A stretch of DNA of 64,000 nt, from positions 34,596,001 through 34,660,000 of the forward strand of contig OX597826.1 of NCBI GenBank assembly GCA_951406725.2. The letters run 5' to 3'. The stretch comes from Octopus vulgaris (lineage: Eukaryota). The translations under genes were made by a program, and so were the position numbers. A model generated the notes under the pieces. That model had not been told where the DNA came from. It worked only from the letters and a program-made list of their open reading frames with translations, and did no database searches. Position 1 is the first letter of the stretch; each line of letters opens with the position of its first letter. Of this stretch, positions 554 to 51,695 are shown piece by piece.

Positions 554-1984
554 AACAGCAATAACAGCAACAAGAACGACTGTTGCAGTAGCAGTAGTAA
601 CAGTAGTACTAGGAGTGGGACAGATATGAATATTAAGAAAGTAAACACATTGTTGAATTTAGTTCCCTTGAAAAAAGTTTCGTGTATCCATTAACAATGA
701 AAGGGTTATCTCGCTTGGCACTTTTAACCACAGTTAACCACAGCTGTAATGTAAACTATTCCAATAGTTGTGAGTGTTTCTTACGCAAAATGTATTAAGA
801 CAAACTTAACAAAGTGACGATAAGTTTATAAAATCATTGAAATAAAATTGAGCAGGATGTGTGCGAAAGATAAATGCGAGCAGTGGGGTGGTGGCTGAAG
901 AAACCTAACTTCTATTATTAAAAGGGTGATATCACTCAGAATTGGACAATAAACAAGGAGGAGGAATGAATTGGAGAGATTTTGGAAAAATTGGCGATAA
1001 TCAACACGAAGCCGAAATTTATAGAGGAATACACGTGGGAAATTAATGGCTTATAGGATTGATTCAATAATGTTTTCTATTTAAACAATAGCACAAATGC
1101 TAGTTGTTCAGAGTATTCACTCGGTAGGCTATTGGTCAAGTTCTTCGAAATGGTCAGAAATTGGAACTAGAAATAACTCGATTTGCTCATGTTTATTGAA
1201 GATTGGTAAAACATTTGCTCAACTTCGCTGCAATAAAGTAGAAAATGGCTAATACAATATGATAATGTTTACCAGATTTTTTTCTCCATAGCCTTGGCAA
1301 TTCATTGCATTATTTTAACTTATTTTGCTTAACGTTGTAAAGCAATAACAAAGTAGTTTAAAATTATATACAAAGTAAAGAAAAAGCACATTGAGACTTT
1401 AAGAAAAACATGTTATTAACTCGAATATAAGTGAAGAAATCACAAACACATTTATTCATGTTTTTTGTGAATAGGCCAACACGTGCCAATATTGAATATG
1501 ATTTAGTAAATATAAGAAAATATGATTTTGTAAATATGAAAAAATAGACTCTATTATATAAGAGAAAGAAATTGAGAATGAGCAGTAGCAGGGGAAAAGG
1601 GACGTTGGAGGGTGGGTGACAGTGGAGACTGAAAAAAAGAAAATGCGGGAAGGTGTGAGAAAGAAGAAAAAGTATGCAAGTGACAGTGAATTAATATAAA
1701 ATAATATAGACTTTTAATATTATTGGCAGAATTTTGCATCTTTTCAGTTTGTAGTCGATCGAATCAACCCAAATCTATGATGTTATAGGACTGGCCAGAT
1801 GTGAAGTTCGATTTGCTTTTGTTTAATACTCTATCGCCCTTACTGCTGGTTTCTTTCCTTCCAACTACAACATTATAAGAACAATTGAGTTTTTTTGTTT
1901 TTTTTTTGAAGATGATGAAGAATTTTAAACTTGCTTATCCAGCATTTGTCCCAATTATGTGCGCTCTGAGTTCAAATCCCGCTG

Positions 1985-2207
1985 AATACCTATTTCTTTA
2001 CTACCCACAAGGACAAACAAGGGCAGACAAACGGATTAAGTCGATTATATCGACCCCAGTGCGTAACTGGTACTTATTTAATCGACCCTGAACGGATGAA
2101 AGGCGAAGTCAACCTCGACGGAATTTGAACTCAGAATGTATCGGCAGACGAAAAACCGCTAAACACTTCGTCCGGCGTGCTAACGATTCTGCCAGCTCGG
2201 CGCCTTA
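1985..2207 (-). mobile_element. Nin/Deu-domain tRNA-SINE (family B), monomer plus linker
   Basis: Minus strand: 'taaggcgccgagctggcagaatcgttagc' head, 'gagttcaaattcc' B box, and Nin-like 'gcctttcatccgttcagggtcgattaaataagtaccag'. Many related copies occur in the window. Confidence 0.85.
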
Positions 2208-2426
2208 ATACCAAATAACTAATGGGCGAGATTGAGTTTATGGTGGAATTGAGAAAACTTTGGGTTTACGTGATTTGTGTTGATAATTCTCAAGCTTCCT
2301 TTATGTTTTTAGATTTCGTATCTCGTAATTGACTTTCCTTCTGACAGTATTGCAGCCCCAGCTGATAAAAACACATTTCTGAAAATGTTTGTAAAATTGA
2401 GAAAGTATAAGGAAACTTTGACTAAA

Positions 2427-2505
2427 ATCATAAGAATGTGGGGTCTCAAGACAACAACTTTTCCTATTATTATTGCAGTACTTAGAATGATTTCAAAAGG
2501 AGCAA
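2427..2505 (+). pseudogene. Small relic of R4/Dong-clade LINE C-terminus
   Basis: Translates as IIRMWGLKTTTFPIIIAVLRMISKGA, which parallels IGKMWNVKTETIPVVIGALGRIAKEA at 39700-39780. Confidence 0.45.
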
Positions 2506-3400
2506 GATGAGAATTATATCAAAATGAATAAAATTAAAATTCCGATGCCGAGTAACGGTGATAACCACAGAATGTCAGACGTGACGGAGCATCAATCGTA
2601 AAAAAACAAAAACATGACTATCACATGAATATTCGTGACTCCAACATTCTCTAGCATGGGTTAAATGCTAGAAAGATGGAGAGAAAAAAAGAAAAGAGAA
2701 ATAGAAAGCGCAAAATTTCTTAAGCAGACTATTCAAAATTTCCCTAACATAAACAGAAAAAGAAAAACTGCATTTCTCTAATACTGTGAATGGCCACAAT
2801 AAGAAACGACGATGGCCCTACAGAGAAATATTGGAAAGGTCTTCGTAATTGTAGACATTTCTCGTAGTGAGATAGAAAAATAGAAGAAAATTACGTACAT
2901 CCTTTTCAACCCAATAGAAACTGTTTTCGAAACATGAATTATGAAAATCTTGCCCACGGTGTGGATATTATTAAGATATGAACCGATATAACGAATAATG
3001 AGGATTTTTAGCTATAAGAATCCATTGAATTATACGATAGTGATTCATGAAGATTTTAGCTAAGGGCTAAATAATGAAGTAAAATAGCATTGTTGGTGTT
3101 GTTGTTGACTGTAGCCTCACCAGTGCAATATGTGTATGTAGGTATTAAGCTTTATACGAGCCTATGTATGTTTTTATACATGCATGTGTGTGTGTGTGGA
3201 TGTAGGTGTATATGTATGCATTTATGCGCATGTGCGTGTATTATAAGTGTATTTATACATGTATATTTATATAAGTGTATTTCTGTGGAAGTGTATAGAG
3301 GCAATATATATGGGTTGTACTTTTCTTACAATTAAAATCAAATTAATAATATCCACCTCGACCATTCAATCGCATGTAGATATTATTACTATTGTTGTTG

Positions 3401-3680
<280 letters not shown>

Positions 3681-3898
3681 TAGCACTACCAGTAAATAAT
3701 GGAAGCAATTGTGACAGCATTAATAATAATAATCATTATCAGAAATAACAGATGTTCAATTAGTAACATAGATACCTTATATTATTCTAACTCTCAAAGA
3801 TACAGCAGCAACAACAGTCACAATAATGTAATTGGTCTTTATATAAATATACACTCTATATACATATGTAATTTGTGTGTATATATATATATACCTCT

Positions 3899-3941
<43 letters not shown>

Positions 3942-4442
3942 TCATACATACATATTTTATCTACTCATCTATCCAACTAACAAGCTAACTCTATCTATTC
4001 GTGCAAACATATATACGCACATACCTATATACATGTATGCCTACATACACACATACACGTGCGCATATTTATGTATGTATGTATATATGTATATAACCTC
4101 AGGCTGTATATTGCTTTATTGAAGCCTATTTTCCGTAGTATTAACAGGATTTATCGTTACTGCAAGTCCCATCTCTATTAATAGCGTTTCTACCACAACT
4201 ACTGACGCTACCGCTTCTACCACTTCTTACAATGCAATTCTCAGCAACACAGCCACAGACACTAGTTCTTTGAACAATATCAGTCTTAACACCGTTTTCC
4301 TTATTTTTTTTTTTATCAAAGCCATTTCTCGCATAATTAATTGCCACTCGCCACGACCATCATTGCCTCAACGTACGACAAAATTGCCACCATCCTCTAT
4401 CCACTTCAGCATACACAGAATTACGAACAACAACGTCAATAT

Positions 4443-13941: not shown

Positions 13942-14028
<87 letters not shown>

Positions 14029-14075
14029 TGAGAGAGATAGACACATAAATAGATGGGTAGATAGATAGACAGATA

Positions 14076-15831
14076 TGTTTCTTTATTAGCCACACAGGGC
14101 TGCACACAGATAGAACAAATTACAAGGTAGAGCTTTTCTTTTGAAGGTTTAAGAAGGAAAAAAAAAAAAAAAAAAAAAAAGGAAGGGGGAGTTTCGATCA
14201 AAAGGGATCGTAAAAGGAGAGAAAGAGGACAAAAAAAAGGGGGGTTAAAAAAAGGGGGGGAGGAAAAAAATTGATCAATAGGGATCGTTATCACAGAAAT
14301 GTCAATATGAAGTGTAAAGGGGAGGACAGGTGAGGTTTACCCGTGCAAAGAAAAGCCTACGGAAAAGACCACGGTAACCTCGGTCAATGATGTCACATTT
14401 TATATTTCTTTTTTTTTTTTTGCAAATAAGCAACTCTCTGTTTTCGATTTCTGGGTTCATAGGACTATGCTCAAGGTGGCTTCGTCATTCATACGTGCCA
14501 TTCTTGCTACATTCATCCATCTTTTTTTAAAACATTCGCTAGACAAAACTTGCCTCTCTACTCTCACTTTCCTTTTCAAGTGGTACTTGAAGAAGTTGAT
14601 GAGAGATTGACCAGAGAGGAAAGTGTTTGTCTCCAATCCTTTCAGACGCGTCCACCAGATACATTCTTTCGCCATAGCCACAAGGATGATGAAAATAGCT
14701 CTTCCTTCCCGTTTGAAGGAAGGAGGCGTGACAATATTGACGATATACTCAGCTGATAAACCGACTCGTCCCACACGTGACAGCAGTTGTTCGACATAAG
14801 CCCACAGGTCGGAAATTGTTGGACACTGAACGAGTGCGTGCAGAACGGTTTCGTCGCTCTGACCGCATCTCGGGCAGGTCGGCCCCGTGTTTCTCGAGCC
14901 GTGTCTGTAGAGCTTATCCCGAACGGGTAGCGCTTCTCGGTAGCACTGCCAGGCCAGGGATCTCTGGAAGTTGTCCATGGGCCCTGGCCCGAAAGTCGTC
15001 CTGAACAGGCGGGTCAGGTACTCCTCGTCGACGTCCAGGTTCGCCCCGACCTCGTCGTCGTACCTCCCCTCCACTAAACCCCTATAGAATGCTTTGGTTG
15101 TGTTGAAGTCACTTAAGGTCGACCCAGGACGGCAGAGTTGCTTGAGAGCAACGCGACACTCGCGGTGCCATTCGCCCTTCCTCGGCCTCTTTTTGATCCA
15201 CGACTGCAGTTCGGTCATGGAGACGAGCTGCGGGAAAGCGTGCCTCACAAACGGCGACCACACCTGTTCACCGTCGTCTACATAGAGCCAGAGATGCCGC
15301 AGTCTCAGCGCGTGTCTGCGCATCATCAACCACGGCATGCCCAGCCCTCCTTTTAACGGGTGTTGACAGCAAATGGATCGCCTGACCATCGGGACGCATC
15401 CTTTCCACAAGAAGCGAAAGAGGATGCGTTGTAGTTTGGTGATGGTAGGGTCGGGACAAGGTACGACGGTCAGGCGGTAGTAGATGACGGACGCGATGTA
15501 CGTGTTCGCCACCTCCGCTCGACCTTTTAGGGACAGTTTCCTCTCGGCCCATTGCCGGGCGAGAGTGACCACCCTACTCGTTATCTCGTTCCAGTTCTTC
15601 TCCACTTGGAGGTCCGGACCAAACCAGACCCCGAGCAACTCAACCGGGCCGTCGGTCCAGCGTCCCACGACGGAGGCGCTGGTGGACGGCATGGGCTTGC
15701 TTCTCCAGGTGCCTAGTCGCAAGCCCACTGACTTTTCCCGGTTGATTTTCGCTCCTGTCACCGCTTCGTAGTTTTTCAGTGTCTCGAAGCGGTGACAGGA
15801 GCGAAAATCAACCGGGAAAAGTCAGTGGGCT

Positions 15832-15832
<1 letters not shown>
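14076..15832 (-). mobile_element. 5'-truncated Tx1/L1-clade non-LTR retrotransposon inserted in (GATA)n
   Basis: GC-rich block with an uninterrupted ORF2 C-terminus, about 380-nt 3'UTR, AATAAA at 14082-14087 (minus strand), and (TCTA)n on both flanks. Confidence 0.92.
14457..15785 (-). CDS. Tx1/L1-like ORF2 C-terminal part (end of RT, thumb, zf-RVT CCHC knuckle); 5'-truncated
   Basis: ETLKNYEAVTGAKINREKS, LLGVWF, LSLKGRAEVAN, FLWKG, P.KGGLGMP and CPRCGQSDETVLHALVQCP are diagnostic L1/Tx1 motifs. No stop codon over more than 440 codons. Confidence 0.9.
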   Translation of the reverse strand, partial: ETLKNYEAVTGAKINREKSVGLRLGTWRSKPMPSTSASVVGRWTDGPVELLGVWFGPDLQVEKNWNEITSRVVTLARQWAERKLSLKGRAEVANTYIASVIYYRLTVVPCPDPTITKLQRILFRFLWKGCVPMVRRSICCQHPLKGGLGMPWLMMRRHALRLRHLWLYVDDGEQVWSPFVRHAFPQLVSMTELQSWIKKRPRKGEWHRECRVALKQLCRPGSTLSDFNTTKAFYRGLVEGRYDDEVGANLDVDEEYLTRLFRTTFGPGPMDNFQRSLAWQCYREALPVRDKLYRHGSRNTGPTCPRCGQSDETVLHALVQCPTISDLWAYVEQLLSRVGRVGLSAEYIVNIVTPPSFKREGRAIFIILVAMAKECIWWTRLKGLETNTFLSGQSLINFFKYHLKRKVRVERQVLSSECFKKRWMNVARMARMNDEATLSIVL

Positions 15833-15870
<38 letters not shown>

Positions 15871-15871
15871 G

Positions 15872-15941
<70 letters not shown>

Positions 15942-15945
15942 GATA
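15832..15945. repeat. (GATA)n microsatellite
   Basis: Directly visible in the sequence. Confidence 0.95.
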
Positions 15946-16199
15946 AGCATATACGAATTTCTTTGGAGTACCGCTGATGCAAGCTTCAGATAAATAGATA
16001 TATCTAAGAGCATATGTGACAAGCAGAAATGCAACGTGTCAAATTATACAATGCAACGCATCACTATTTATTTGAATATGTGGATTGACTTCATATGTAA
16101 GAGTGTCATAGAAAAAGATCTTTATAGATATCAACGATATATTCCGTTTCGACGTTGAATATGTGGTACATTTCACAACACTCCCGCTAATAGCTTTGC

Positions 16200-16446
<247 letters not shown>

Positions 16447-16609
16447 CATTTTCATTGTAACAAAAAGTATTCGTTAATATGAGTTACAGCAGCTCATATA
16501 CATACATATTTATATAAGTATATATATTTGTGTGTACTTATGTATGCCTTTGTGTGTGTGGTAATACATGTATGGATGCATTTTTCAATCAATGTATCTA
16601 CCTATTTCC

Positions 16610-16656
<47 letters not shown>

Positions 16657-16720
16657 CACGAACACATGCACACACACATATATGCGCGCACTCTCTCTCT
16701 CTCACTCTCTCTCACTCACA

Positions 16721-16779
<59 letters not shown>

Positions 16780-17159
16780 ATATATACTGTAGTAAGGTAG
16801 TTGAAACCAACCAAAATAGAGCAAATACAATAACGGTAATATAAAGTGTATGTTCTGTAAAAATAGAAAGCCAGGCCAAGTGCTGTAGAAGAACGCTAGC
16901 ATAAGAAATGGCATATTCTTTGGTACATTGATAAATATATTGAATATGACTCAGTAAATGTCTAAATCGAGAGACAATTATTAAACCATTCACCAAGATC
17001 TTCATATACACGTGAATATTTCTGTAGCAGCATTTTTTGTTATCTGTTCTGCATTTCGAACTTATACGTTCAGGGAATGAATTCATACGATGATGACAGC
17101 AAACGTTTATATGTCCTTTCCTTTGTATGGTTATAATCGTCAATGGCAAAATGATATGC

Positions 17160-17197
<38 letters not shown>

Positions 17198-17247
17198 TAA
17201 TAATAATAATAATAATAATAATGATGATGATAATAATGATAATAATG

Positions 17248-17311
<64 letters not shown>

Positions 17312-17331
17312 TGATAATAATGATAATAATG

Positions 17332-17406
<75 letters not shown>

Positions 17407-17420
17407 GTAATAATAATAAT
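17160..17420. repeat. (AAT)n array with a duplicated GAT-variant block
   Basis: Directly visible; the block 'atgatgataataatgataataatgat' occurs twice. Confidence 0.95.
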
Positions 17421-17645
17421 GGTATAAAAGATGGCCTGCAGCAAATATTCTGCTCAGTGTCAGTTGTTTGATCTTAACCAGTTGAGCATGTCCCTTAGTG
17501 GCTGGCCATATGGGCTAGAAGTAATGGGGGAGCATCATAGCCGTGTGTTGAGAGGAATTCGTTGGAGTTTGGATCATTTACTTCTGGAAACATGGATGTT
17601 TTGTCTAACATCTTTAGACATCCCTTATTCAAGAGCCTTTTGAAC
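17421..17645 (-). mobile_element. Unclassified retroposon 3' end abutting (ATT)n
   Basis: GC-richer segment ending directly in the AAT array. It resembles a recalled common octopus repeat, but only one copy is present here. Confidence 0.3.
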
Positions 17646-17659
17646 TTATAACCAGGAGA

Positions 17660-17953
17660 CAGAGTAAATACCGCTAAGCATAACGACCCGGTGTTCTAAC
17701 GATTCTGCCATCTCACTGTCTTAATAATAATAGTAATGAAAATGGTTTCAAATTTTGCCACAAGGGCCGCAATTTTGTGGGCGGATATGGGTGGATTACG
17801 TGGACACCAGTGTTCAACTGAAACCTATTTTATCGTTCCAAAAAGGATGAAAGGTAAAGTAGACCTCGCCGGAATTTCAACTCCGAATGTAGTGATGGAT
17901 GCAATATCGCTGAGCATTTCGTCCGGCGCACTAACGATTCTGCCAGTTCACTA
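17660..17953 (-). mobile_element. Two degraded Nin-SINE (family B) copies
   Basis: 'taacgattctgcca' head remnants at about 17697 and 17932; Nin domain 'tttatcgttccaaaaaggatgaaaggtaaagtagacctcgccgg'. Confidence 0.7.
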
Positions 17954-18109
17954 AATTGAAGATAATAAAGCTAAACGCACATACACATATTACAATCCCG
18001 ACCAGACACAACTTTATGTATACATGACGCCCACAACTCTTAATACACATGAACTTGAGGAACTATATTCGAATAACTTGTATTTGACATACGATCTTGC
18101 AATCTAGAT

Positions 18110-18175
<66 letters not shown>

Positions 18176-18234
18176 GTGTGTATATGCATACATATATATG
18201 TGTGTGTATATATGTATATATATATATATGCCGG

Positions 18235-18271
<37 letters not shown>

Positions 18272-18288
18272 GTCGATACATGTATAGG

Positions 18289-18319
<31 letters not shown>

Positions 18320-18622
18320 GTATGTATACGTATATATATTTACTTATGTGTATACGCGAGTGTATTAACACATATGTGTGTGTCAAGCTTTGCACAGACG
18401 TCTGTATCTTACCCTACGTGCGAAACTGTGCCCGTATTTATCTACGCTATGTGCGTATATTTATGCTTCAATACACGTGTGTACCTGCGTATATGAGTTC
18501 TTATACATATATATATGTATATATTCATACATACGTGTGCGTATGTGCGTGTATCTAGTGGTACGTATATACCCATATACCTGGATGTGCATGTGTAAGC
18601 GTGTATGTATATATGCGTATAT

Positions 18623-18969
18623 TTAAGACCCCCCCCCCCCTTCGGTCATCAATGACCATGGGATTGCACCTAGAAAGTTACCCTCCTAGACACAAGTCCG
18701 GGCAAGGTTGTTTATGGAAGACCAGCAGTCGCCCATGCATACCAGCCTCCCCTCTCCACGCCACCAGTGTTATCCAAGGGAAAGACAAAGGTCGATACAG
18801 CTTGGCACCAGTGACGTCGCAACTCATTTCTACAACTGAGTGAACTGGAGCAACGTGAAATAAAGTGATTTGCTCAAGAACACAACACGCAGCCCGGTCC
18901 GGGATTCGAGCTCACAACCTCACGATCGTAAGCTCGACGCTCTAACCACTGAGCCATGCGCCTTCACAT
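18623..18969 (-). mobile_element. tRNA-SINE family D (MESC/CORE-like central domain) with 11-bp TSD
   Basis: Head 'gtgaaggcgcatggctcagtggttagagcg...gagctcgaatcccgg' followed by 'gtgttgtgttcttgagcaa'. TSD tatgcgtatat at 18612-18622 and 18970-18980. Confidence 0.85.
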
Positions 18970-19259
18970 TATGCGTATATATATCTGTGTATGTATATAT
19001 GCGTCTAAGCACGAACACAAAACACCATTTCGTCTAAGTATTCTCTTCCTTTCAACTTCTTCCTTTTCTTTCTCTTAAGTGTTTTAACAGAGAAAGCTCA
19101 TTACGTCATTTTCTCTAAATTAGAATATATACTTTCCACGTTCATATTTGAAATTCGCGTTTCAATAATTTTTTTTCTAATTTTACTCATTCTCGAATTT
19201 GATGGACATATAGCGGTACACAAACCGACTCAAGAAATCTCTAGTGAGACTTTTCATTG

Positions 19260-19310
19260 GTGTCCCTGAAGTGACCCAGACGGGTCGAAACATGTGTTGT
19301 GCACAATAAA
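19260..19310 (+). ncRNA. Type I hammerhead-ribozyme-like motif (degenerate) followed by AATAAA
   Basis: gtgtcc CTGAAGT GACCC agac GGGTC GAAA C atgt G TT gtgcac AATAAA. The A9 position reads T. Confidence 0.55.
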
Positions 19311-19529
19311 GTCTATTACACATTCCATCTCCTATTTTATCAATACTATCACCCCAACCGCCACTACAAAGTTTCTGCAATAAATCTACGGTTAACAACG
19401 GGTAATCGAAACTGTGACGGTGCTTTACACATCATTCATTTATACAATTTCTACCATTTCTCCATTATATTCACATATCTGTGTGTATGTGTGTTTGTAA
19501 AAATGTGTGTGTTTATGTATATACATACA

Positions 19530-19592
<63 letters not shown>

Positions 19593-19620
19593 ATATATAT
19601 ATATGTATATATATATGCAC

Positions 19621-19658
<38 letters not shown>

Positions 19659-21059
19659 TTGTGTTTGTGTGTGTGTATATAGTTACATATACGTATATAT
19701 ATGTATGCATACAAGAACCACAAATATTATATGTCTGTTGCATTCTGCAGAACGAAAGAAAAAAACACAAAAGTGCTATATCTCTACAAAGAAATAAGCC
19801 AAGATGCTCTGTGAGGTTTCATTAAAAATATAGACATTACAAAAGCTGCCAGACGTATATGCTGGAATTTGTCATTTAAAAGTGATAAATTTGGTTAATA
19901 ACAGCTTTTGTAACAATGAGAAAGACAGCAATAGAATTACATCTACACATGTCTGGTAATTCTATTTATTTGATTATGTTTCTTACGTAACAACTTTTCA
20001 TATCATCTTATATATAATTCAGAAGGCGCAGCCCTTGTACCTGCCTAAGGCTTTTAGTCATGTAAATGTATAACTCATCGTCTTCTTTATTGTAGTTAAC
20101 GTTCATAGACGTCATCATCTTAATTCTCTTCATCACTATCAGCAGATCGCTTTATACGGTTCACTCTTCAATACTGTTGGACATATATTTGTACGCAATG
20201 AAATTAAAATGTGCAAGTTATATTTTCCATGTGGCAACAGAAATAAGAAGCATAACAGATTTAGTAAAAAATGTTTGGCAAAGAAAGTAATGTGTCTTTT
20301 CTTCATACATTATGTCAGTTTCGGAAGTGACTGTCTGGTCGTGGATATTTTCCATCAGCGGAATATATCTCCTCCGTTTTCACGCTGTCTATGTGTGTTT
20401 ATAACAATCCAGTTTCACTGATTTTTCGAATTTTATGGTCCAAATCAATGATTCTTAGAAGATTAAAGTTTTCTTATGCGTGCCGCTGTCTGTGATGCAG
20501 ATAATAATACGGGGAGCGCAGAAAATAGCGAATTTAAATAAATAATAAATTGTTTCTTTCTCCATACATTTAATAGCATTGTGTGTGTATGTGTGTTTGT
20601 GTGTGCATGTGTATGTGTGTGTGCGTTTCTGTATGTGTGTTTATAAGCCTTGATAATCTTAGTGGCTACTACTAACTTCAGAACACCACAGACAGAGACG
20701 ATGGTCTTGAAGCCGAGAATTTGAAGTTACGGAGACAATACTTACATATCCCCTGAAGAAATACTATAGTTCATAATACAAGGAAATGATTACATAATGA
20801 TGTACCTCGATGACTGAGAAACTACATTCCGTAGAAGCAATTGTAGTGATTGAGAATAAATGTTCAAACGTACGCCTTCTTGTTGACTTCAAATCTGTCA
20901 ATCTGTTCACACACGACAGAAGCCCAGACGCAAACATGGAAGTACGTATACTACTATTACTGGATAACACAGGGTGAAATTTGAAGGTGAACGAGATTTA
21001 TACTGAAACTGCTTCCTTAACAGGATATAGTACAACTATATATGTATATCCATATGCAT

Positions 21060-21079
21060 CTACCTATCTATTTATTTAT

Positions 21080-21115
<36 letters not shown>

Positions 21116-21176
21116 ATATCTATCTATCTATCTATCTATATATCTGTCTGTCTGTATATCTGTCTATCTATCTATA

Positions 21177-21241
<65 letters not shown>

Positions 21242-21256
21242 GTCTATCTGTCTGTG

Positions 21257-21325
<69 letters not shown>

Positions 21326-21345
21326 GTCTATCTCTCTCTCTCTAT
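21060..21345. repeat. (TCTA)n microsatellite
   Basis: Directly visible in the sequence. Confidence 0.95.
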
Positions 21346-21412
21346 ATATATATATAAAGATAATATTAAGATAAACAAAGTTTTCTACAATGCTCTGCTA
21401 TCTCTCTGATAG

Positions 21413-21890
21413 ACTTGCAAGTCTATGCTTCCAAATTTCTCTAGTCCGTGACGAAATATTACTCGTCGAGTACTGTTCTAACCTCGTGTACTGAATTCAT
21501 ATTTTATCCGTCCAAATGATTTTGAAGATTGCGGAATAAATGATAATCAGATGGGGTAATATCCGGCGAATTTGGTGGATGAGGTATCGTTTCCCATTCA
21601 AACTGCACTAGCCTTTGGAATGTCATCCTCGCTGTACGTAGTCGGGAATTATTCAGATGGAAGAACACCTTTCCTCTTGAAACCAAAGAAGCTCGTTTTC
21701 CTTCTAGCGCTGACTTAAACCGCTCAAGCTACTGGTAGTGGGTCTCCTCTGCTATCGTTGGGCTTGGGTTTAAAATTTCAAAGTGAACTAAACCTTTCAT
21801 ATCTCGCCAAATAGATAACAGCACATTACGTGGGTGAAGACCTTCTTGAGCCTGGAGTGCCAATGTTTCTCCTTTCCCTACCCGCTATCC
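21413..21890 (-). mobile_element. Mariner (DD34D) transposase pseudogene fragment
   Basis: WETIPHPPNSPDITPSDYHLFRNLQNHLDG matches the mariner HPPYSPDLAPSDYHLF motif. The frame is broken by stops and frameshifts. Confidence 0.88.
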
Positions 21891-23354
21891 TCGGCGCGTG
21901 ATACTTCAATAGAAAACTCATTTCTTGCCACCAGTCACTATTCGGTCCAAAAAAGATTAATTCGTGAGTTTTTTTTATTGGATTATCATTGAATACTAAA
22001 TATGAAAAACTATGTAAAAGTAAATGCATGATCTACACTTGATAATTCCATATCAAATATAGGAATATAAGATTCATGTAAAAATATGAGGGTCATTATA
22101 AAACGGAATAATTCCCCATTCTTAGGGTTAGTTTACAGAAATATTTATTCTCTGAATGAGTCAAACGAAAAGTCAAGAAAAGGAAATTTTTCATTAATTA
22201 TATTCGCGTTTTTGAATTCCTATCAATTTATCGATCATTCTTCCACATACATATGCCGTATGTTCGAATACACATACACACACACATACACACGTACGTA
22301 CATTCATACAAGTTTTTCTGTGTGTCTGTGAGTCTGTGTTTGTGAGAGTATGTGTGATATATATATATATGCAAAGCAATTGATATATATATCGAGGGAG
22401 GGTGACAACGAGACACACTCACACACATACACGGAGACTGAGATAGAGAGGAAGAAAGATGGAGAGAAACAAGAGATAAAACAAGCAAGGGTGCTCTGTT
22501 AATGTGTGGATGTGCGTGAGTGCCATTATTTGAGTGTTCATCTGTTCATAACTTTGATTTCGAGTAATTTCTGGGTATTTCATTAAGATTCCATCATCAA
22601 TCACAGACAGTGCTACCGTCTCCACTGCAATTATTACTAACAAAAACACTGATATGAAAAGCGCCAACAACAAAAGCAAAAAATTATAAAATTTAATTTA
22701 TATTCTAATAAGTTTTCAATTTTTTTTTAAATATTTATTTTAAAGAATCTGAATTACTGCACTTAAATTTAGTGATTTATAAAGAAAATAGTGAGATAAA
22801 ATATCTTTCAGATATCTTAATTCTGTAATATTTTCTCTTATGGTTTATCTCACTCGAGTTTGTTCTGAATAAATTTATCCAACATAAATTTCATTCAATT
22901 CTGAAGAATTTAAAGTGAAACCAAATGTATCTATATATATATGTGTGTGTATATACATAAACATATATATATATATATATATGAATGTATGTATTATATA
23001 TATATTCATAAATATAGATATATGTATATAGACATTTGTATCTATGAATGTTTGAATCTATGATTACTTGTCTAAAAAGCAGATAAAAGGGAGGTTTATA
23101 AACCTGTGCTTAAGTTATTTTTGGAAAACGGTAAATGATTTTCCCTTGTTATACAAAAGCTCACGCAAGCGGAAAGGCATAGAATCTTTCTCACGACAGT
23201 TTGAATACAGTACAATATGGAAAACAGTAAAATCATATCTATATACACGATTACTTTATAAATATATATATATGCATGTTTCTATAATTTTGCCCTTACT
23301 TTCTTCGACAATGACACACGCTCACACATGCACAAACACTCACAGACGCAGCCC

Positions 23355-23406
<52 letters not shown>

Positions 23407-24264
23407 AACACACATTTACGATGAAGAAACGATTTTAAAAATACGTAATTCTCTTCCAACAGTGATTGAATCAAGCGCAAGTTGAATGATGTAAAAACTT
23501 GAAACAGAATATTTTTCATGAAGTACGGTTAAAAACAATTAATTAAAACGAGAAAGTTAATAGAAAATATTTTCAGAAATATTTCATTGTTAAATAAATT
23601 TTTTCATAAAATTATATTATTCTTATTTCATGAAAATATAAAGTACATTTTAACATAAATTTGTTTAACAAAAATTTACGCAAATCATTATAAAGATATA
23701 TATATATATCATTATAAAGCTGTATATAAATAAATACATATTTATAAAACAAAACTTTGTTTTTAAGACAAACTAAAATTTCGAAAAATGCAGTGATCTT
23801 GAAAATGGCCAACACAGATGAAGATATAGATCAATACAGCATGGCTTTTTCAATGTTGTGATTTGAAGCATCGAAAGAAATTTTAAAGTCTAGTTTTGTC
23901 ATTTGCAGAAAATTCTCAAGAACACTTAAATCAAACATTACAGATGGAAATGAAGGGTTGGCTAGAAACGTTAAATGGATTTCCTAGAAGTGTTGATCAG
24001 GAAGTAGACAGATTGGACTTTTGTTGGCTTCTAAGTGGATGGATTTTCATGCAACAACAAATTCACATTCTCTCACTGACACATCAGTTTTTCATGTGTA
24101 GAAACTGTGGAAATTAGTCTAATCTTAATTAGGAAAGACGATTTTAATAAGAAATTTCAACCAAGAACGTCCAATTGAGAATCTTCTTTACGTTTAAATT
24201 ACACTTTCCATGAAGGAACTTCGATGTTTTTCTCTTTTATAGAATATTTTCCAAACTTTCATTA

Positions 24265-24341
<77 letters not shown>

Positions 24342-24899
24342 GTTATTATTATTAGAGACTTGCTTTTAAAATGTGATTTCTAATACCTTCTGCTTGACTT
24401 CTCTTTTGAATTTCATTAATTCAATGGTTTCTGTTTTGTTTTTAACAATTTAATCAACGCTTAATTGAGGTGGGGCACTGTACGTTGCACTAATGAACCA
24501 AAATTGAATCTTGCATTGCAGGAATGAATGAATGATTATTGATGAAAACTAAAACTTCCCAATTTCAATTCACTCAAATATTGGTAATAGTGCATTTTCA
24601 CGGGGTAATTCTTACGTATTTGGTGAATGGTCTTTTGGTGTTATACCCTAAGTCTGTTGAAGTGTAGAAAAATAAAATGTAAGGAAATATATTTCAGATG
24701 TCACTGCACTAAATTTGAACTGATTGAGCAACAACGTATTTCTTCTGATTATATTCATCGATATATATGTATATATACCTGCGCGAACGCACATTCCCAC
24801 ACATACACACTCATATATCTTTCCCTTGCACTCTCCTATCTCTTTCTCTTGCACTCTCCTATCTTAGAAAGAACTTTTTCTTCACCTATTTCCTTCCGG

Positions 24900-25106
24900 T
24901 CATTTCAAAATGTAACTCCGTGTGCATCGCTGGCGATTTTCTTCCTCCGTCTTCCATTCTTTTTGGACTTATCTCTATTTCTGAAGAAGAGCTTGGCTCG
25001 TAGCATTAAATCCTCATCCCTTTCCTGAGCGTCTGATAATACAGTACTTGTACCACATCCCCGCGTTATTGATTTTTCGTTACTTTTTGTTCTTCTTTGT
25101 TTGGAT

Positions 25107-25110
<4 letters not shown>
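24900..25110 (+). mobile_element. Penelope-like terminal-repeat relic with hammerhead-like motif (24977-25011)
   Basis: attt CTGAAGA A GAGC ttg GCTC GTAG CA TT aaat. Downstream 'ttcctgagcgtctgataataca' is homologous to 44717-44740; ends at (TA)n. Confidence 0.5.
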
Positions 25111-25150
<40 letters not shown>

Positions 25151-25200
25151 GAAAATAGGATAAAATCTTTATAAGAATTTATCAAGTAGTTAGCGTGAAC

Positions 25201-25232
<32 letters not shown>

Positions 25233-26324
25233 ATATGTATATATGTATATATTCCATTCATACACCAAAATCTTCATGTTATAATATAACATATTTGAAT
25301 TAATTTCATCATATGAGTGTTAGAAATATGTAAGAGTATAACGATGGGCAGAAAAGAAAATTCTTTGGTGAATAATATGTAAACTATGACATTTGGGTTT
25401 CGCATATGTGCATATTTTAATGCAGCCACAGTTGTATACGCCTGTGATAATTATACATAGAATAGGCTCATATATGTACACAAGATAACTAAAAAAGAAT
25501 GACAATGTGAAAATGTGCAAGCAAACATCAATAGACCTTTTAAAGCAATAACGGTTTTGATTATCAAGTATTTTAATACAATTTTCATGCAGTCCAGTAT
25601 GTGGGTGTATGTGCGATGGAAGCAAATTTAAAGAGTAAATTTCTATAATGACAGCAGTAATATATGTTTAAAAGCAGCTATTATCTTGGATTTGTTTGTA
25701 ATGCCCACGCAAAACCATCTAGATCTAGCAATTAATATCATCTTTTGGCAACGTAGTGCGAAAGCATAGTGTTAGAAGAATTATGTTTTATTGAACCGCA
25801 TCTGTATCTTGGTGCAATTGAATGACGTAAATCTCTTATGTGAACGTTGCAAAATATTATTTACTCCGCTGGGGGCTCCACTTCAGGAAAGTTTGAATGT
25901 CGTAGTGGGGGATTAGCAGTGCGTTGTCGTTTATTTAGGGTCGCATGTATGTAGAGGTTACAGTGAAGATGCTAATAATCCAAACAAGAAGAATACCGAA
26001 GGATAACCGATCCTTGTGGTACACCTGAGTTGATATAGTAATGGCTGAGAAGACACATGTTGCAATAGAATTACTCGGCATGAAGATTCCAATCCATGTT
26101 AATAGAGATCAGTAGAAACAATTTAGCAAACAACTTAAGCAGAAAATTCTGTATTACATTATTTGGTATTGTTTTAGAGTAAATTATTGCTGTTATTGTT
26201 AGTGCTGTGATTGTTTTGCTTTTTTGTGTTTTAACTATTTCTCTGTTTTTTTTGTGAGTTTCATATACTTGCGTTGTTTTTATATTCATGCTTCCTGCTT
26301 GTTTTCCACCTTGTTGTTGTTTTC

Positions 26325-26386
26325 ATTATTATTATTATTATTATATTATTATTGTTATTATTATTATTATTATTATTAATATTATT

Positions 26387-26430
<44 letters not shown>

Positions 26431-26622
26431 GATCCTCACAATCATCAACATGATCATCACAATCATCATCATCATCATCACCATCATCACCATCATCATT
26501 ACTATTATTGGTATTATTATTGTGGTTGTTGTCATTAACATCATTATTATTATTATTATCATTATTATCATTATTATCATTATCATCTTCATAATCATCA
26601 TCATGATCCTCACAATCATCAA

Positions 26623-26658
<36 letters not shown>

Positions 26659-26725
26659 TACTATTATTGCTATTATTATTATTGTTGTTGTTGTTATTGC
26701 TATTATTATTATTATTATTATTAAT

Positions 26726-26785
<60 letters not shown>
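26325..26785. repeat. Compound (ATT)n/(ATC)n/(GTT)n array with internal duplication
   Basis: Directly visible in the sequence. Confidence 0.95.
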
Positions 26786-27783
26786 CGGTGTTGTTTTCTG
26801 TCTTGTTATCCGCCTCAGTGTTTCTTTTTTATAGTTGTTGTGTGTGTTACTGTATGCGGTCATATTTTGTATTTCGTTTGCCGTTATCATGGTTGCAGTT
26901 TATGATGTCGTATTCCTTATATTTCACCGTTTCTAACGTTATTGTTTCGATTCTTTTATATCCTTGGTCACACAGAGCCAATATCATTGTGGTGTATCAT
27001 TGCATTATAACAATTATATTTCATCTTTAAGCCAGAATAGCAGTAGAAACTAATTTAGTGATTGCGTTAATGTTAATTGTTTGTTAACTTCTAATGTTGT
27101 TGCAGTCACTGCATTTCCTGCAATCAACAAATTATTCATGCCACAAGGACGGCTGTTCAGCAAACCATGAACCAACAAACAGATAATTGCTAATGAAACT
27201 AAATACCTGTCCGTTTGTCTATTAATGCATTTATACATTCAGCCAGCCAGCCAGCAGCTATCCAGGTATCGAATCCACTGCATAATGTCATCTAACCATA
27301 TGGCCTTTCTTATAACTTTCTCCCAAGCTGACCAACATTTGTGATACCGTTAAACCTCTTATGTTTATATTCAGTCTCCGGTGAATCACCCACCTTGCAA
27401 TATTAATACTCAGCTAAAATATGACAGCAGAGATCAATAATACTTTTGTGCAGTGGTCCTTTGATTGATTTTGAATTTTCCCATGGTTAACAAACATAGA
27501 ATATAAAAATATCTCTGGATTTCCCTTCTCAATCATCAGCGGCCATCAGCATGGAGTTACTACACAAGCAAGAGTTATTTAATTCGATTTAGCCGGATAC
27601 ACGAATAACCCATGGACCCCAGGCGCTCGCATATACATACAATGCCAAAAACACAGCGACATGCACATCCGTAAATATATATGCGCGCGCGCGTGTGTAC
27701 AGATATTGTTAGATATATGTAAGTATATATATTTATACATATACATACATATATATACATATATATATGTGTATATATATACG

Positions 27784-49928: not shown

Positions 49929-50615
49929 CCTGCTATTGTAGTTGATGTTATGGTTACAATTACTTGTCTTCCCGGTGGTGTAAGTGATGTTGTTATTATT
50001 GCTTTTGTTGTTGCTAGAATAATTCCTTTCCCTGGTGCTGTTATTGTTGTTATTGTAATAGTAGTCTCCGTTATTTTAATGTTTTTTAATGTTGTTATTG
50101 TTGTTGTTGTTGTTGCTGTTGTTTCTCCTCCCGGTACTATAATTGTCGTTGCAGTTGTTACTTGCTATCACAAATTTCCTGTCGTGTCAAATAACTATTT
50201 ATCAAAAGCCAGTTTCTGTTTGAGTTAAGTATCCTTCATGCCAAAATACACTAAATGATGTGCCAACCATGGTTAGTTTTCCAGCACCATTTCAACCATT
50301 CGGCCTCTTTAGAGCTTCAGCAGCTAATTGTTTCAACGCTATCAACAACAAAAGCTGTTTCCGTTCTTCCTCTTCACACACCAACACAATTCTACCAACC
50401 ATTGAGTAATTTGTTATCATATTCACTTAGCTTCCTACACAAGCTTTTGATAAACTCGAGACGTGTTGCGTATGATTTCTTCTTAGTACTATTGTGAAAA
50501 CGAAAACTGCGTCGTCCATTTCTTAGTAATGACTCTTGGCAATAAGATCTGTTAATATATTGCCAACCACCATAATATACATTTTAGTGAAGGTGGTGGG
50601 AATACAAGACATGGT

Positions 50616-50958
50616 CGTTATTTACATTATTTACATTTGACGGATATCTCTCCTCATCTTGTTTGTTGTTAACACAATAATTTTGGCTGACAAACCCTCC
50701 AGCCTTCATCAGGTGTCTTGGGGAAATTACGAACCTGGCTTCTCATTCCTAAGGTAGTTTTCGATGTTGTTTATTATTATCATTATTATTATTATTATTA
50801 TCATTATTATTATTGTTGTTGTTGTTCAGGTCACTGCTTGGAATCGAACTCGGAATCTTAGGGTTAGTAGCCCGCGCTCTTAACCCCTACGCCATATGCC
50901 CACGGGCATAATAATGTAAATAATGTACATAATTCCTCATCTCTTAAATATAGAACTG
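50616..50958 (-). mobile_element. tRNA-headed retroposon with hammerhead-like motif, 13-bp TSD and terminal inversion
   Basis: TSD tacaagacatggt (50603-50615 and 50959-50971). Minus-strand tRNA head 50900->50830 (A box 'tggcgtaggggttaagagc', B box 'gagttcgattcc'), (AAT/AAC)n linker, then acac CTGATGA A GGCTG..CAGCC AAAA..TT gtgt. Confidence 0.8.
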
Positions 50959-51242
50959 TACAAGACATGGTGTTATAAATTTAACCTCCTTTTTCCCCAC
51001 AGGTAATGGCAGTTAATTGCTTCTACTGATCTTCGATACTTTTTCTTTTATGCAAGAATTTATCTCCAGGAGATCAAATCCTACTGCATTTTAATTAATC
51101 TTCCACCATCCAGATGATATATAGTAAGACACAGTAATTTAAAGTGCCGGGTTTGGCATAAACCTGCATATCGATTGGTCACGAGAATTAGGATAAACGT
51201 ATACGAGTAACTAGATTACTCAGCCATTTACCCGCTTATACA

Positions 51243-51695
51243 TTATCATCGTCATTGTTCGACCGTGGTCGAACAATGGAATTTACCATGCTACGCCAGA
51301 CTTTACGGTCCATCATAGCATTACGGAGGTCCTGTTGCTGGATGCATGTATCCCTGGAGATTACATCAGGGTAGGCGAGTGTGCGCCCTCTGGTGTTGCG
51401 AGTAGATGGCTTCCAGAGGAGAAGAGTAGAAATTGCCTCGTTTTCAGCTCTACAACAATGTCCAGCAAACTGGACTCTCCTACCTTTCACAAGAGATGAC
51501 ACGGTGGTAGTTTCTCATATATTTGCATTTTGGTTGGATGACGCTTCCACGAGAGATTTTGAGCTCTCATAAGGAGGCGAGTGTAGGTTCCATCCAACCG
51601 CCTCTCAAGCTTCTTTGATAACGTCCAGGTTTCTAAGCCATATAGTAGAATTGGTTCGACTGTGGCTTTGAAGATTTCAAGTTTGAAGTCTCTAC
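51243..51695 (-). mobile_element. RTE/RTEX-clade LINE 3' fragment
   Basis: FKATVEPILLYGLETWTL...RRVQFAGHCCRAE...GRTLAYPDVI...MMDRKVWR, ending in a GAT-type tail. Confidence 0.88.

Follow-up and report, generated by a model that had tools for sequence, protein, structure and literature searches.

The EN+ PLEs Pen2a_Av (PMC3846280), Poseidon_Ac (PMC11167929) and D. virilis Penelope (PMC2377424) are described, in the parts of these reports on which we draw, as elements with a single RT + GIY-YIG ORF that starts within the pLTR, where a hammerhead overlaps the ORF start. Their insertions carry an inverted 5′-truncated arm, a one-sided tail of 30–40 nt, a TSD and an inversion palindrome. For Poseidon_Ac and Pen2a_Av, the same sections give the ribozyme and the tail as the first codons of the ORF, and two priming sites are reported to bound the tail (PMC11167929). 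As far as the cited sections go, the inverted arm, one-sided tail and TSD constitute a known PLE signature (PMC8557442; Pen2a_Av in PMC3846280), and the minimal PLE hammerhead has a conserved core, a 4–5-bp helix I, an extra base before helix II, G10.1–C11.1 and a palindromic helix III (PMC4209133). The tested Drosophila Penelope pLTR promoter is said to resemble TATA-less LINE promoters (PMC2377424), and the sections of the Pen2a_Av, Poseidon_Ac and D. virilis Penelope accounts used here mention no Pol III promoter.

The Schistosoma repeats Sm-alpha and Sj-alpha are presented as short repeats in which a Pol III-type promoter is followed by a hammerhead; they are tandem, their hammerhead is canonical, and no ORF-bearing parent is named in the portion of the report that we cite (PMC6765202). 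Non-LTR retrozymes are short non-coding hammerhead units related to PLE pLTRs and are defined by tandem repeats and circular RNA, with no tRNA head mentioned in the cited passages (PMC7229834; bioRxiv 10.64898/2026.07.22.740005). The octopus SINEs OK, OR1 and OR2, reportedly described by Ohshima and Okada in 1994, have a tRNA-derived head. OR2 is given as a CORE SINE in the relevant part of its description (PMC4758252).

We analysed a 64,000-nucleotide stretch of the Octopus vulgaris genome (the window; assembly GCA_951406725.2, contig OX597826.1, positions 34,596,001 to 34,660,000) and conclude, with a probability of about 0.62, that a short repeat within it is a two-armed insertion of the pLTR of a Penelope/Poseidon element, whose tRNA-like A/B-box head is likely an internal promoter, probably for Pol III. 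The octopus element shares the ORF, pLTR, hammerhead, arm, tail, TSD and palindrome traits listed above for the three EN+ PLEs. It differs from them, as they appear in those sections, in that its pLTR contains a tRNA-derived A/B-box sequence and a microsatellite and most of its copies stop at or inside the A/B-box sequence. Compared with Sm-alpha and Sj-alpha as described in the cited portion, the octopus unit has a minimal PLE-type ribozyme, occurs in head-to-head copies and is part of an ORF-bearing element. Its body is the start of a PLE ORF, unlike that of OR2; the descriptions of octopus SINEs, in the parts available, set it apart in this way, and it may equal OR1 or a Repbase or Dfam entry. 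The features of the window copy are collected in Table 1.

Table 1. Features of the pLTR insertion, in window coordinates
Feature	Position	Strand	Remarks
TSD, left copy, 13 bp	50603..50615	.	direct-repeat search
TSD, right copy, 13 bp	50959..50971	.	direct-repeat search; TSDs of the family are at most 13 bp
Long arm, a pLTR copy from the 5′ boundary to a tail-less 3′ end in 9-nt repeats	50616..50910	-	
Palindrome at the inversion junction	50895..50910	.	covers the 5′ boundary of the family and the initial bases of the tRNA-like stretch
tRNA-like head, likely internal promoter	50829..50901	-	putative A box 50894–50884, B box 50851–50840
(AAC/AAT)n microsatellite spacer	about 50766..50826	-	length varies among copies
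First codons of the Penelope/Poseidon ORF	50616..50746	-	ATG at 50746; overlaps the hammerhead; frameshifted here
Minimal type I hammerhead	50671..50717	-	G12 is A (50684) and helix III is altered in the window copy
Short inverted arm, the last 46 nt of the pLTR	50913..50958	+	includes the ~30-nt Penelope tail

The first-pass annotation of the window had proposed a unit of 343 bp between perfect 13-bp direct repeats, and both the repeats and their spacing were recovered. The order that it gave for the minus strand, a tRNA-like A/B-box head followed by (AAC/AAT)n and a hammerhead motif, was confirmed. It had also noted an inverted terminus at which a repeat resumes on the plus strand; the resumption stands, and the segment was refined to the true 3′ end of the element including the tail. 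This short arm is 97.8% identical to positions 128–173 of the family body, and the minus-strand arm ends short of the tail. The long arm agrees with the family majority at 82 of 84 positions of the head and at 93% in the body. Two 39-nt words were searched for as exact matches in the genome (2.8 Gb, 227 contigs): the one from the hammerhead occurs 1,576 times and the one from the head 429 times, with no occurrence of their reversed controls, so the unit is not a product of chance. A genome search gave 4,425 candidates, 40 of which were scored. Head and hammerhead co-occur across other copies, as had been expected, and the feature is real, old and high-copy.

The insertion footprint was determined in the first 30 loci from each exact-word search (L071–L130), all on contig C1 and 58 of them distinct; locus samples throughout are small and partly biased towards chromosome C1 and well-conserved copies. 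Two-armed head-to-head insertions were present at 32 of the 58 distinct loci. The tail was on exactly one arm in 30 of these 32 insertions, on neither arm in 2 and on both in none. A TSD of at least 7 bp (maximum 13) flanked 27/32 insertions compared with 3/32 when the flanks were shifted. The family therefore shows the inverted truncated arm, one-sided tail and TSD of PLEs. The same arrangement is seen in the window copy, whose long arm is without a tail and whose 46-nt arm carries it. From these data we conclude that the inverted end is the known Penelope footprint. Like the TSD and the ribozyme, it belongs to the ordinary biology of Penelope elements. The window copy by itself was compatible with classical L1 twin priming, an explanation that was dropped because in most loci the two arms begin at the 3′ end or close to it.

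The T/A ribozyme variant was common to both arms in 18 of 20 informative pairs from the same loci (L071–L130; P = 0.003), and the arms of one insertion were only 89% alike, compared with 88% between loci. The two arms thus appear to come from the same source subfamily, which is not proof of one template. At 9 of 22 exact tail ends in L071–L130 the tail is followed by TA, which matches the next two bases of the ORF and is also found in the window copy; a 2-nt priming microhomology is possible.

In the window hammerhead, helix II is 5 bp long, the loop has 10 nt and GAAA is replaced by AAAA. Because G12 is A and helix III is altered, this ribozyme is predicted to be inactive, in agreement with the earlier description of it as likely dead. 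The complete core, with the anticipated GAAAC followed by GUU, is present in the majority sequence of 30 copies. Among 100 arms chosen without regard to the ribozyme the family majority reads CGAAAC; 84 of them retain G12 and 42 the entire core. In the family hammerhead, helices I and II are both 5 bp long, a bulged base precedes helix II and helix III is palindromic, and the majority sequence has every feature of the minimal PLE hammerhead, which the window copy does not. The MFE fold of the monomer (−13.6) differs from the hammerhead fold (−12.2 kcal/mol), and pairing of the helix III palindrome of one copy with that of another is feasible (−5.7); the ribozyme is predicted to work only as a dimer. 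Short deletions near the cut site were seen in 10–11 of 22 ORF-linked pLTRs (L131–L160) compared with 2 of about 63 head-start arms, a comparison that is biased by selection. Such deletions could mark cleaved templates that were rejoined via template jumping.

At locus L079 an ORF end, distinct from that of Neptune, sits between two arms. A search with this ORF end gave 3,075 candidates, from which 30 loci were fetched. The ORF stop and a short UTR continue directly into the head at 27 of these 30 loci, which were picked by the ORF 3′ end (one of the 27 is the query and four are near-duplicates), and the ribozyme body is also reached at 16 of the 30. Of 30 loci chosen through the 5′ end of the ORF, 21 have a tail that continues in frame into the ORF, 3 of them with an upstream head by score; an exact 37-mer spanning the tail–ORF junction occurs 31 times in the genome. 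L164 and L184 are pLTR–ORF–pLTR copies. Together with L223 and L229, the latter a UTR–head–body–ORF copy with a shortened tail, they are pLTR–ORF–pLTR or partial tandem arrangements with the ORF start inside the pLTR. The full element consists of the head, (AAT)n, the ATG and hammerhead, the tail, an RT + GIY-YIG ORF of about 835 codons, a short 3′ UTR and then the head again. As the ATG lies just upstream of the ribozyme, the ribozyme and tail form the first ~52 codons of the ORF. The proposal that a Penelope RT rather than a LINE mobilises a non-autonomous unit was thus half right: the enzyme is Penelope-type and its family is now identified, and a separate family is not supported. At L137, L142, L145, L148 and L160 the copies have the order ORF–UTR–(head)–microsatellite and stop at the (AAT)n tract, which suggests priming or recombination at host microsatellites.

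The protein has an RVT_1 match, and its DKG, YVDD and degenerate GIY-YIG region can be aligned both to relatives and to the Neptune protein; the single ORF encodes a PLE-type RT (DKG) and, at the C terminus, an endonuclease of the GIY-YIG type. The PF01541 GIY-YIG profile gave no match to the endonuclease of the family, which counts against this assignment. In the protein alignment the linker joining RT to EN is without a zinc finger; a zinc-finger linker at this position is ascribed to Neptune and Nematis in the cited part of the report (PMC8557442). The protein has 1,009 database relatives. The family would belong to Penelope/Poseidon, where it is placed by architecture rather than by a tree including named clade references. 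ORF-bearing copies are ~93% identical to their majority, and the family majority retains one frameshift, in an A-run. No intact full ORF was found among 30 loci, in which the longest open frame is 569 aa. Eight distant relatives in short metagenome contigs (34–42% identity) had neither a pattern-matched hammerhead nor a convincing tRNA head. A protein search with the 52-aa N-terminal peptide had a putatively exonised copy in an Octopus sinensis gene model as its sole match. This gene model, for a cysteine-rich and apparently membrane protein, starts with ~36 residues of the ORF start and is a possible exonisation of a pLTR copy.

A young and abundant Neptune family (765–781-aa ORF, 456-bp pLTR) was considered as the partner and rejected: similarity to the unit was absent from 30 GIY-YIG loci, and 10 long loci contained just 14–18-nt matches. 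L061 (G000:C16:20834000-20841500) is itself a young Neptune-type PLE with several copies ~98% identical, many of them with a 781-aa open frame. In its family the pLTR is 456 bp long, and a separate ORF of 346 aa lies upstream of the one for RT-EN.

The 5′ ends of 59 ribozyme-carrying arms were counted after exclusion of arms selected for having a head. The body accounts for 17 of these ends, the microsatellite for 16 and the head interior for 12; another 13 fall in a 14-nt interval at the head start, and 1 lies upstream. Thirteen of the 14 arms at risk stop in this 14-nt interval, compared with 0.007–0.011 stops per nt further in, and the stop rate at the head start is ~20 times background. 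The count becomes 13/15 (P = 7e-11) once the left arm of L079, scored as microsatellite, is counted as ORF-linked. The boundary matches tRNA position 1 to within a few bases and is most simply read as the place where RT would run off the 5′ end of the RNA. Palindrome annealing as its sole cause was ruled out, as 32 of 38 boundary arms are joined other than palindrome to palindrome. Heads are about sevenfold commoner than ORF ends. Genome-wide, exact 20-mers occur 813 times for the ORF end, 856 for the UTR and 5,148 for the head; corrected estimates are ~1,500, ~2,600 (1,800–4,200) and ~18,000 (14,000–27,000) arms, respectively.

The head is colinear with a genomic tRNA-Arg(TCT), to which it is identical at 50 of 70 aligned positions (z = 9.6 relative to shuffled sequences), and its global alignment begins at tRNA position 1. 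The A box and the B box each agree with a genomic tRNA at 9 of 11 positions. The cloverleaf is decayed and the boxes are kept, also in short copies, so that the unit has a tRNA-related 5′ head with A and B boxes, as SINEs do. OR1 and OR2 were reportedly found by Ohshima and Okada in 1994 to be derived from tRNA-Arg, and the best genomic match here is also tRNA-Arg(TCT). Our comparison set was drawn from 30 genomic tRNA loci, which yielded 38 distinct tRNA-like sequences and represent no more than six isotypes apart from one Ser and one Glu call; as most isotypes are absent from it, tRNA-Arg(TCT) is only a candidate parent of the head. ARAGORN called 0 tRNA genes in 15/15 family loci and Rfam gave neither a tRNA call for the head nor a hammerhead call for the motif, so the tRNA likeness of the head rests on the tRNA-Arg(TCT) alignment.

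The sharp stops at the head start, the head excess and the absence of TTTT argue that transcription likely starts at the head. That Pol III is probably responsible is suggested by sequence features, namely A and B boxes kept despite cloverleaf decay, a boundary at tRNA position 1 and the lack of T4 runs. TTTT occurs 0 times in the 2,646-nt unit compared with 16 times in a 4,784-nt Neptune element of equal T content, and another PLE ORF has 8 such runs. This deficit is marginal under dinucleotide (P = 0.054) and trinucleotide (P = 0.145) nulls, and codon nulls gave P = 0.04 (shuffling of its own codons) and 0.016–0.018 (Neptune codon usage). Three short control ORF pieces are also free of T4 and the unit is free of G-runs as well, which counts against a specific deficit, and how an uncapped Pol III RNA would be translated counts against the Pol III reading. 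No transcript was seen; the one run compared that was guessed to be RNA contained 3 contigs with <90% identity. Alternatively, the head could be a passenger, an old tRNA-SINE or tRNA piece in the 3′ UTR, with the pLTR read by Pol II from a TATA-like site, as for Drosophila Penelope, or RT stalling at the palindrome, and the short copies being ordinary truncated pLTRs. A TATA-like word is indeed present ~30 nt upstream of the boundary, where it fits Pol II as well as Pol III, together with an initiator-like word. The marginal T4 deficit agrees with such a head, as do two points taken from the cited parts of earlier reports: known PLE promoters sit in the pLTR and behave Pol II-like (PMC2377424), and rotifer pLTRs have 5′ palindromes without a tRNA (PMC3846280). 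However, a head of this kind would not be expected to place the boundary within a few bases of tRNA position 1 or to match genomic tRNA so closely in both boxes although the cloverleaf is decayed, and the native hairpin of just ~5 bp would be a weak RT barrier. We regard a passenger head as unlikely.

The short copies might also be a true SINE born inside its partner, transcribed by Pol III, re-copied in trans by the Penelope protein and forming a lineage of their own. The excess of heads over ORF ends, the sharp 5′ boundary and the boxes retained in short copies are consistent with this, the T/A ribozyme-core variant is somewhat commoner in short copies (25/64 vs 3/23, P = 0.02), and PLE pLTRs can be trans-mobilised according to the part of the report cited (PMC3846280). 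However, a comparison of 37 ORF-linked with 79 head-start arms revealed no fixed diagnostic position, and the same three common polymorphisms occur in both; a separate short-copy lineage is therefore not shown. ORF-linked arms differ mainly through gaps and lower identity, partly from selection. Moreover, the Poseidon_Ac template is described, in the sections used, as one that must include ORF sequence beyond the priming sites (PMC11167929); such sequence is missing from the short copies. What the copies have in common with the ORF-bearing element is not only a 3′ end, as in a separate SINE lineage: the whole unit, head included, is its pLTR, and the idea of a separate non-autonomous family is not supported. 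We consider a true SINE rather improbable. The label of retrozyme, which the first-pass annotation had also applied, would imply that hammerhead-cut tandem monomers are circularised and reinserted. A type I hammerhead within a ~300-bp unit, a few partial direct tandems (L078, L110) and the link between retrozymes and PLE pLTRs drawn in the cited text (bioRxiv 10.64898/2026.07.22.740005) would suit such an origin, but copies end at the tail and the head, not at the ribozyme cut site. Since they are dispersed and head-to-head rather than head-to-tail tandem repeats with a hammerhead in each unit, the label does not fit, and we give this origin very little credence. It is conceivable, though we would rather doubt it, that a coding retrotransposon captured a tRNA promoter and is transcribed by Pol III from end to end, with TTTT terminators being kept out of the 2.6-kb unit. 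Its uncapped RNA would then be translated, perhaps after hammerhead processing, and the same promoter would make from the pLTR a SINE-like product that outnumbers the parent, that is, a SINE being born in an autonomous partner.

For the preferred reading, a two-armed pLTR insertion with a likely internal promoter, the biochemistry of Poseidon_Ac offers a model. By analogy, the protein would cut both target strands ~13 nt apart, and reverse transcription would be primed from both ends, once where the tail ends and once ~30 nt upstream, after which the pair of cDNAs would join head to head within one TSD. Most templates would begin at the head, and RT would consequently run off there and leave SINE-sized copies; ORF-bearing copies would arise only from read-through templates. 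The short copies are thus likely to be run-off products.

Among the literature matches listed, in the parts of these sources that were available, we found neither a tRNA-type promoter inside a PLE nor a PLE-mobilised tRNA SINE; Repbase, Dfam, SINEBase, the Zenodo library of PMC13282606 or supplements may hold the family. The new aspect is a tRNA-derived promoter-like sequence in the pLTR together with SINE-like copies that start there, likely by run-off. SINEs are normally separate parasites that share just their 3′ end with a LINE. In contrast, the tRNA head found here lies inside an autonomous element, with an enzyme of the Penelope type. Should the head function as a Pol III promoter, a SINE could arise in this way from within its partner, and the element might be a coding retroelement driven by Pol III. 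Automatic annotation pipelines would file the ~18,000 head-bearing arms as SINEs. The sharp 5′ boundary and one-sided tail also make the family a large natural dataset on PLE priming and the joining of two cDNAs.

Close copies of the family are present in sequencing runs under four organism labels, and 3 of those runs cover the UTR, head, body and ORF start of an ORF-linked copy. No contig among the joints listed corresponds to the empty site of the window insertion. Flank contigs from runs X2, X5 and X6 enter the element by 22–29 nt, which is below the 31-letter threshold. For window positions 50250–50637, flank contigs with ~5% divergence, from runs that carry the labels organism A and organism C, enter the first 22 nt of the element, a weak hint that the window insertion is older than the split of organisms A and C. 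Another high-copy repeat lies at 51245–51400 of the window; it begins with a 12-bp inverted repeat, has deep coverage in run X5 and resembles a stretch in L086.
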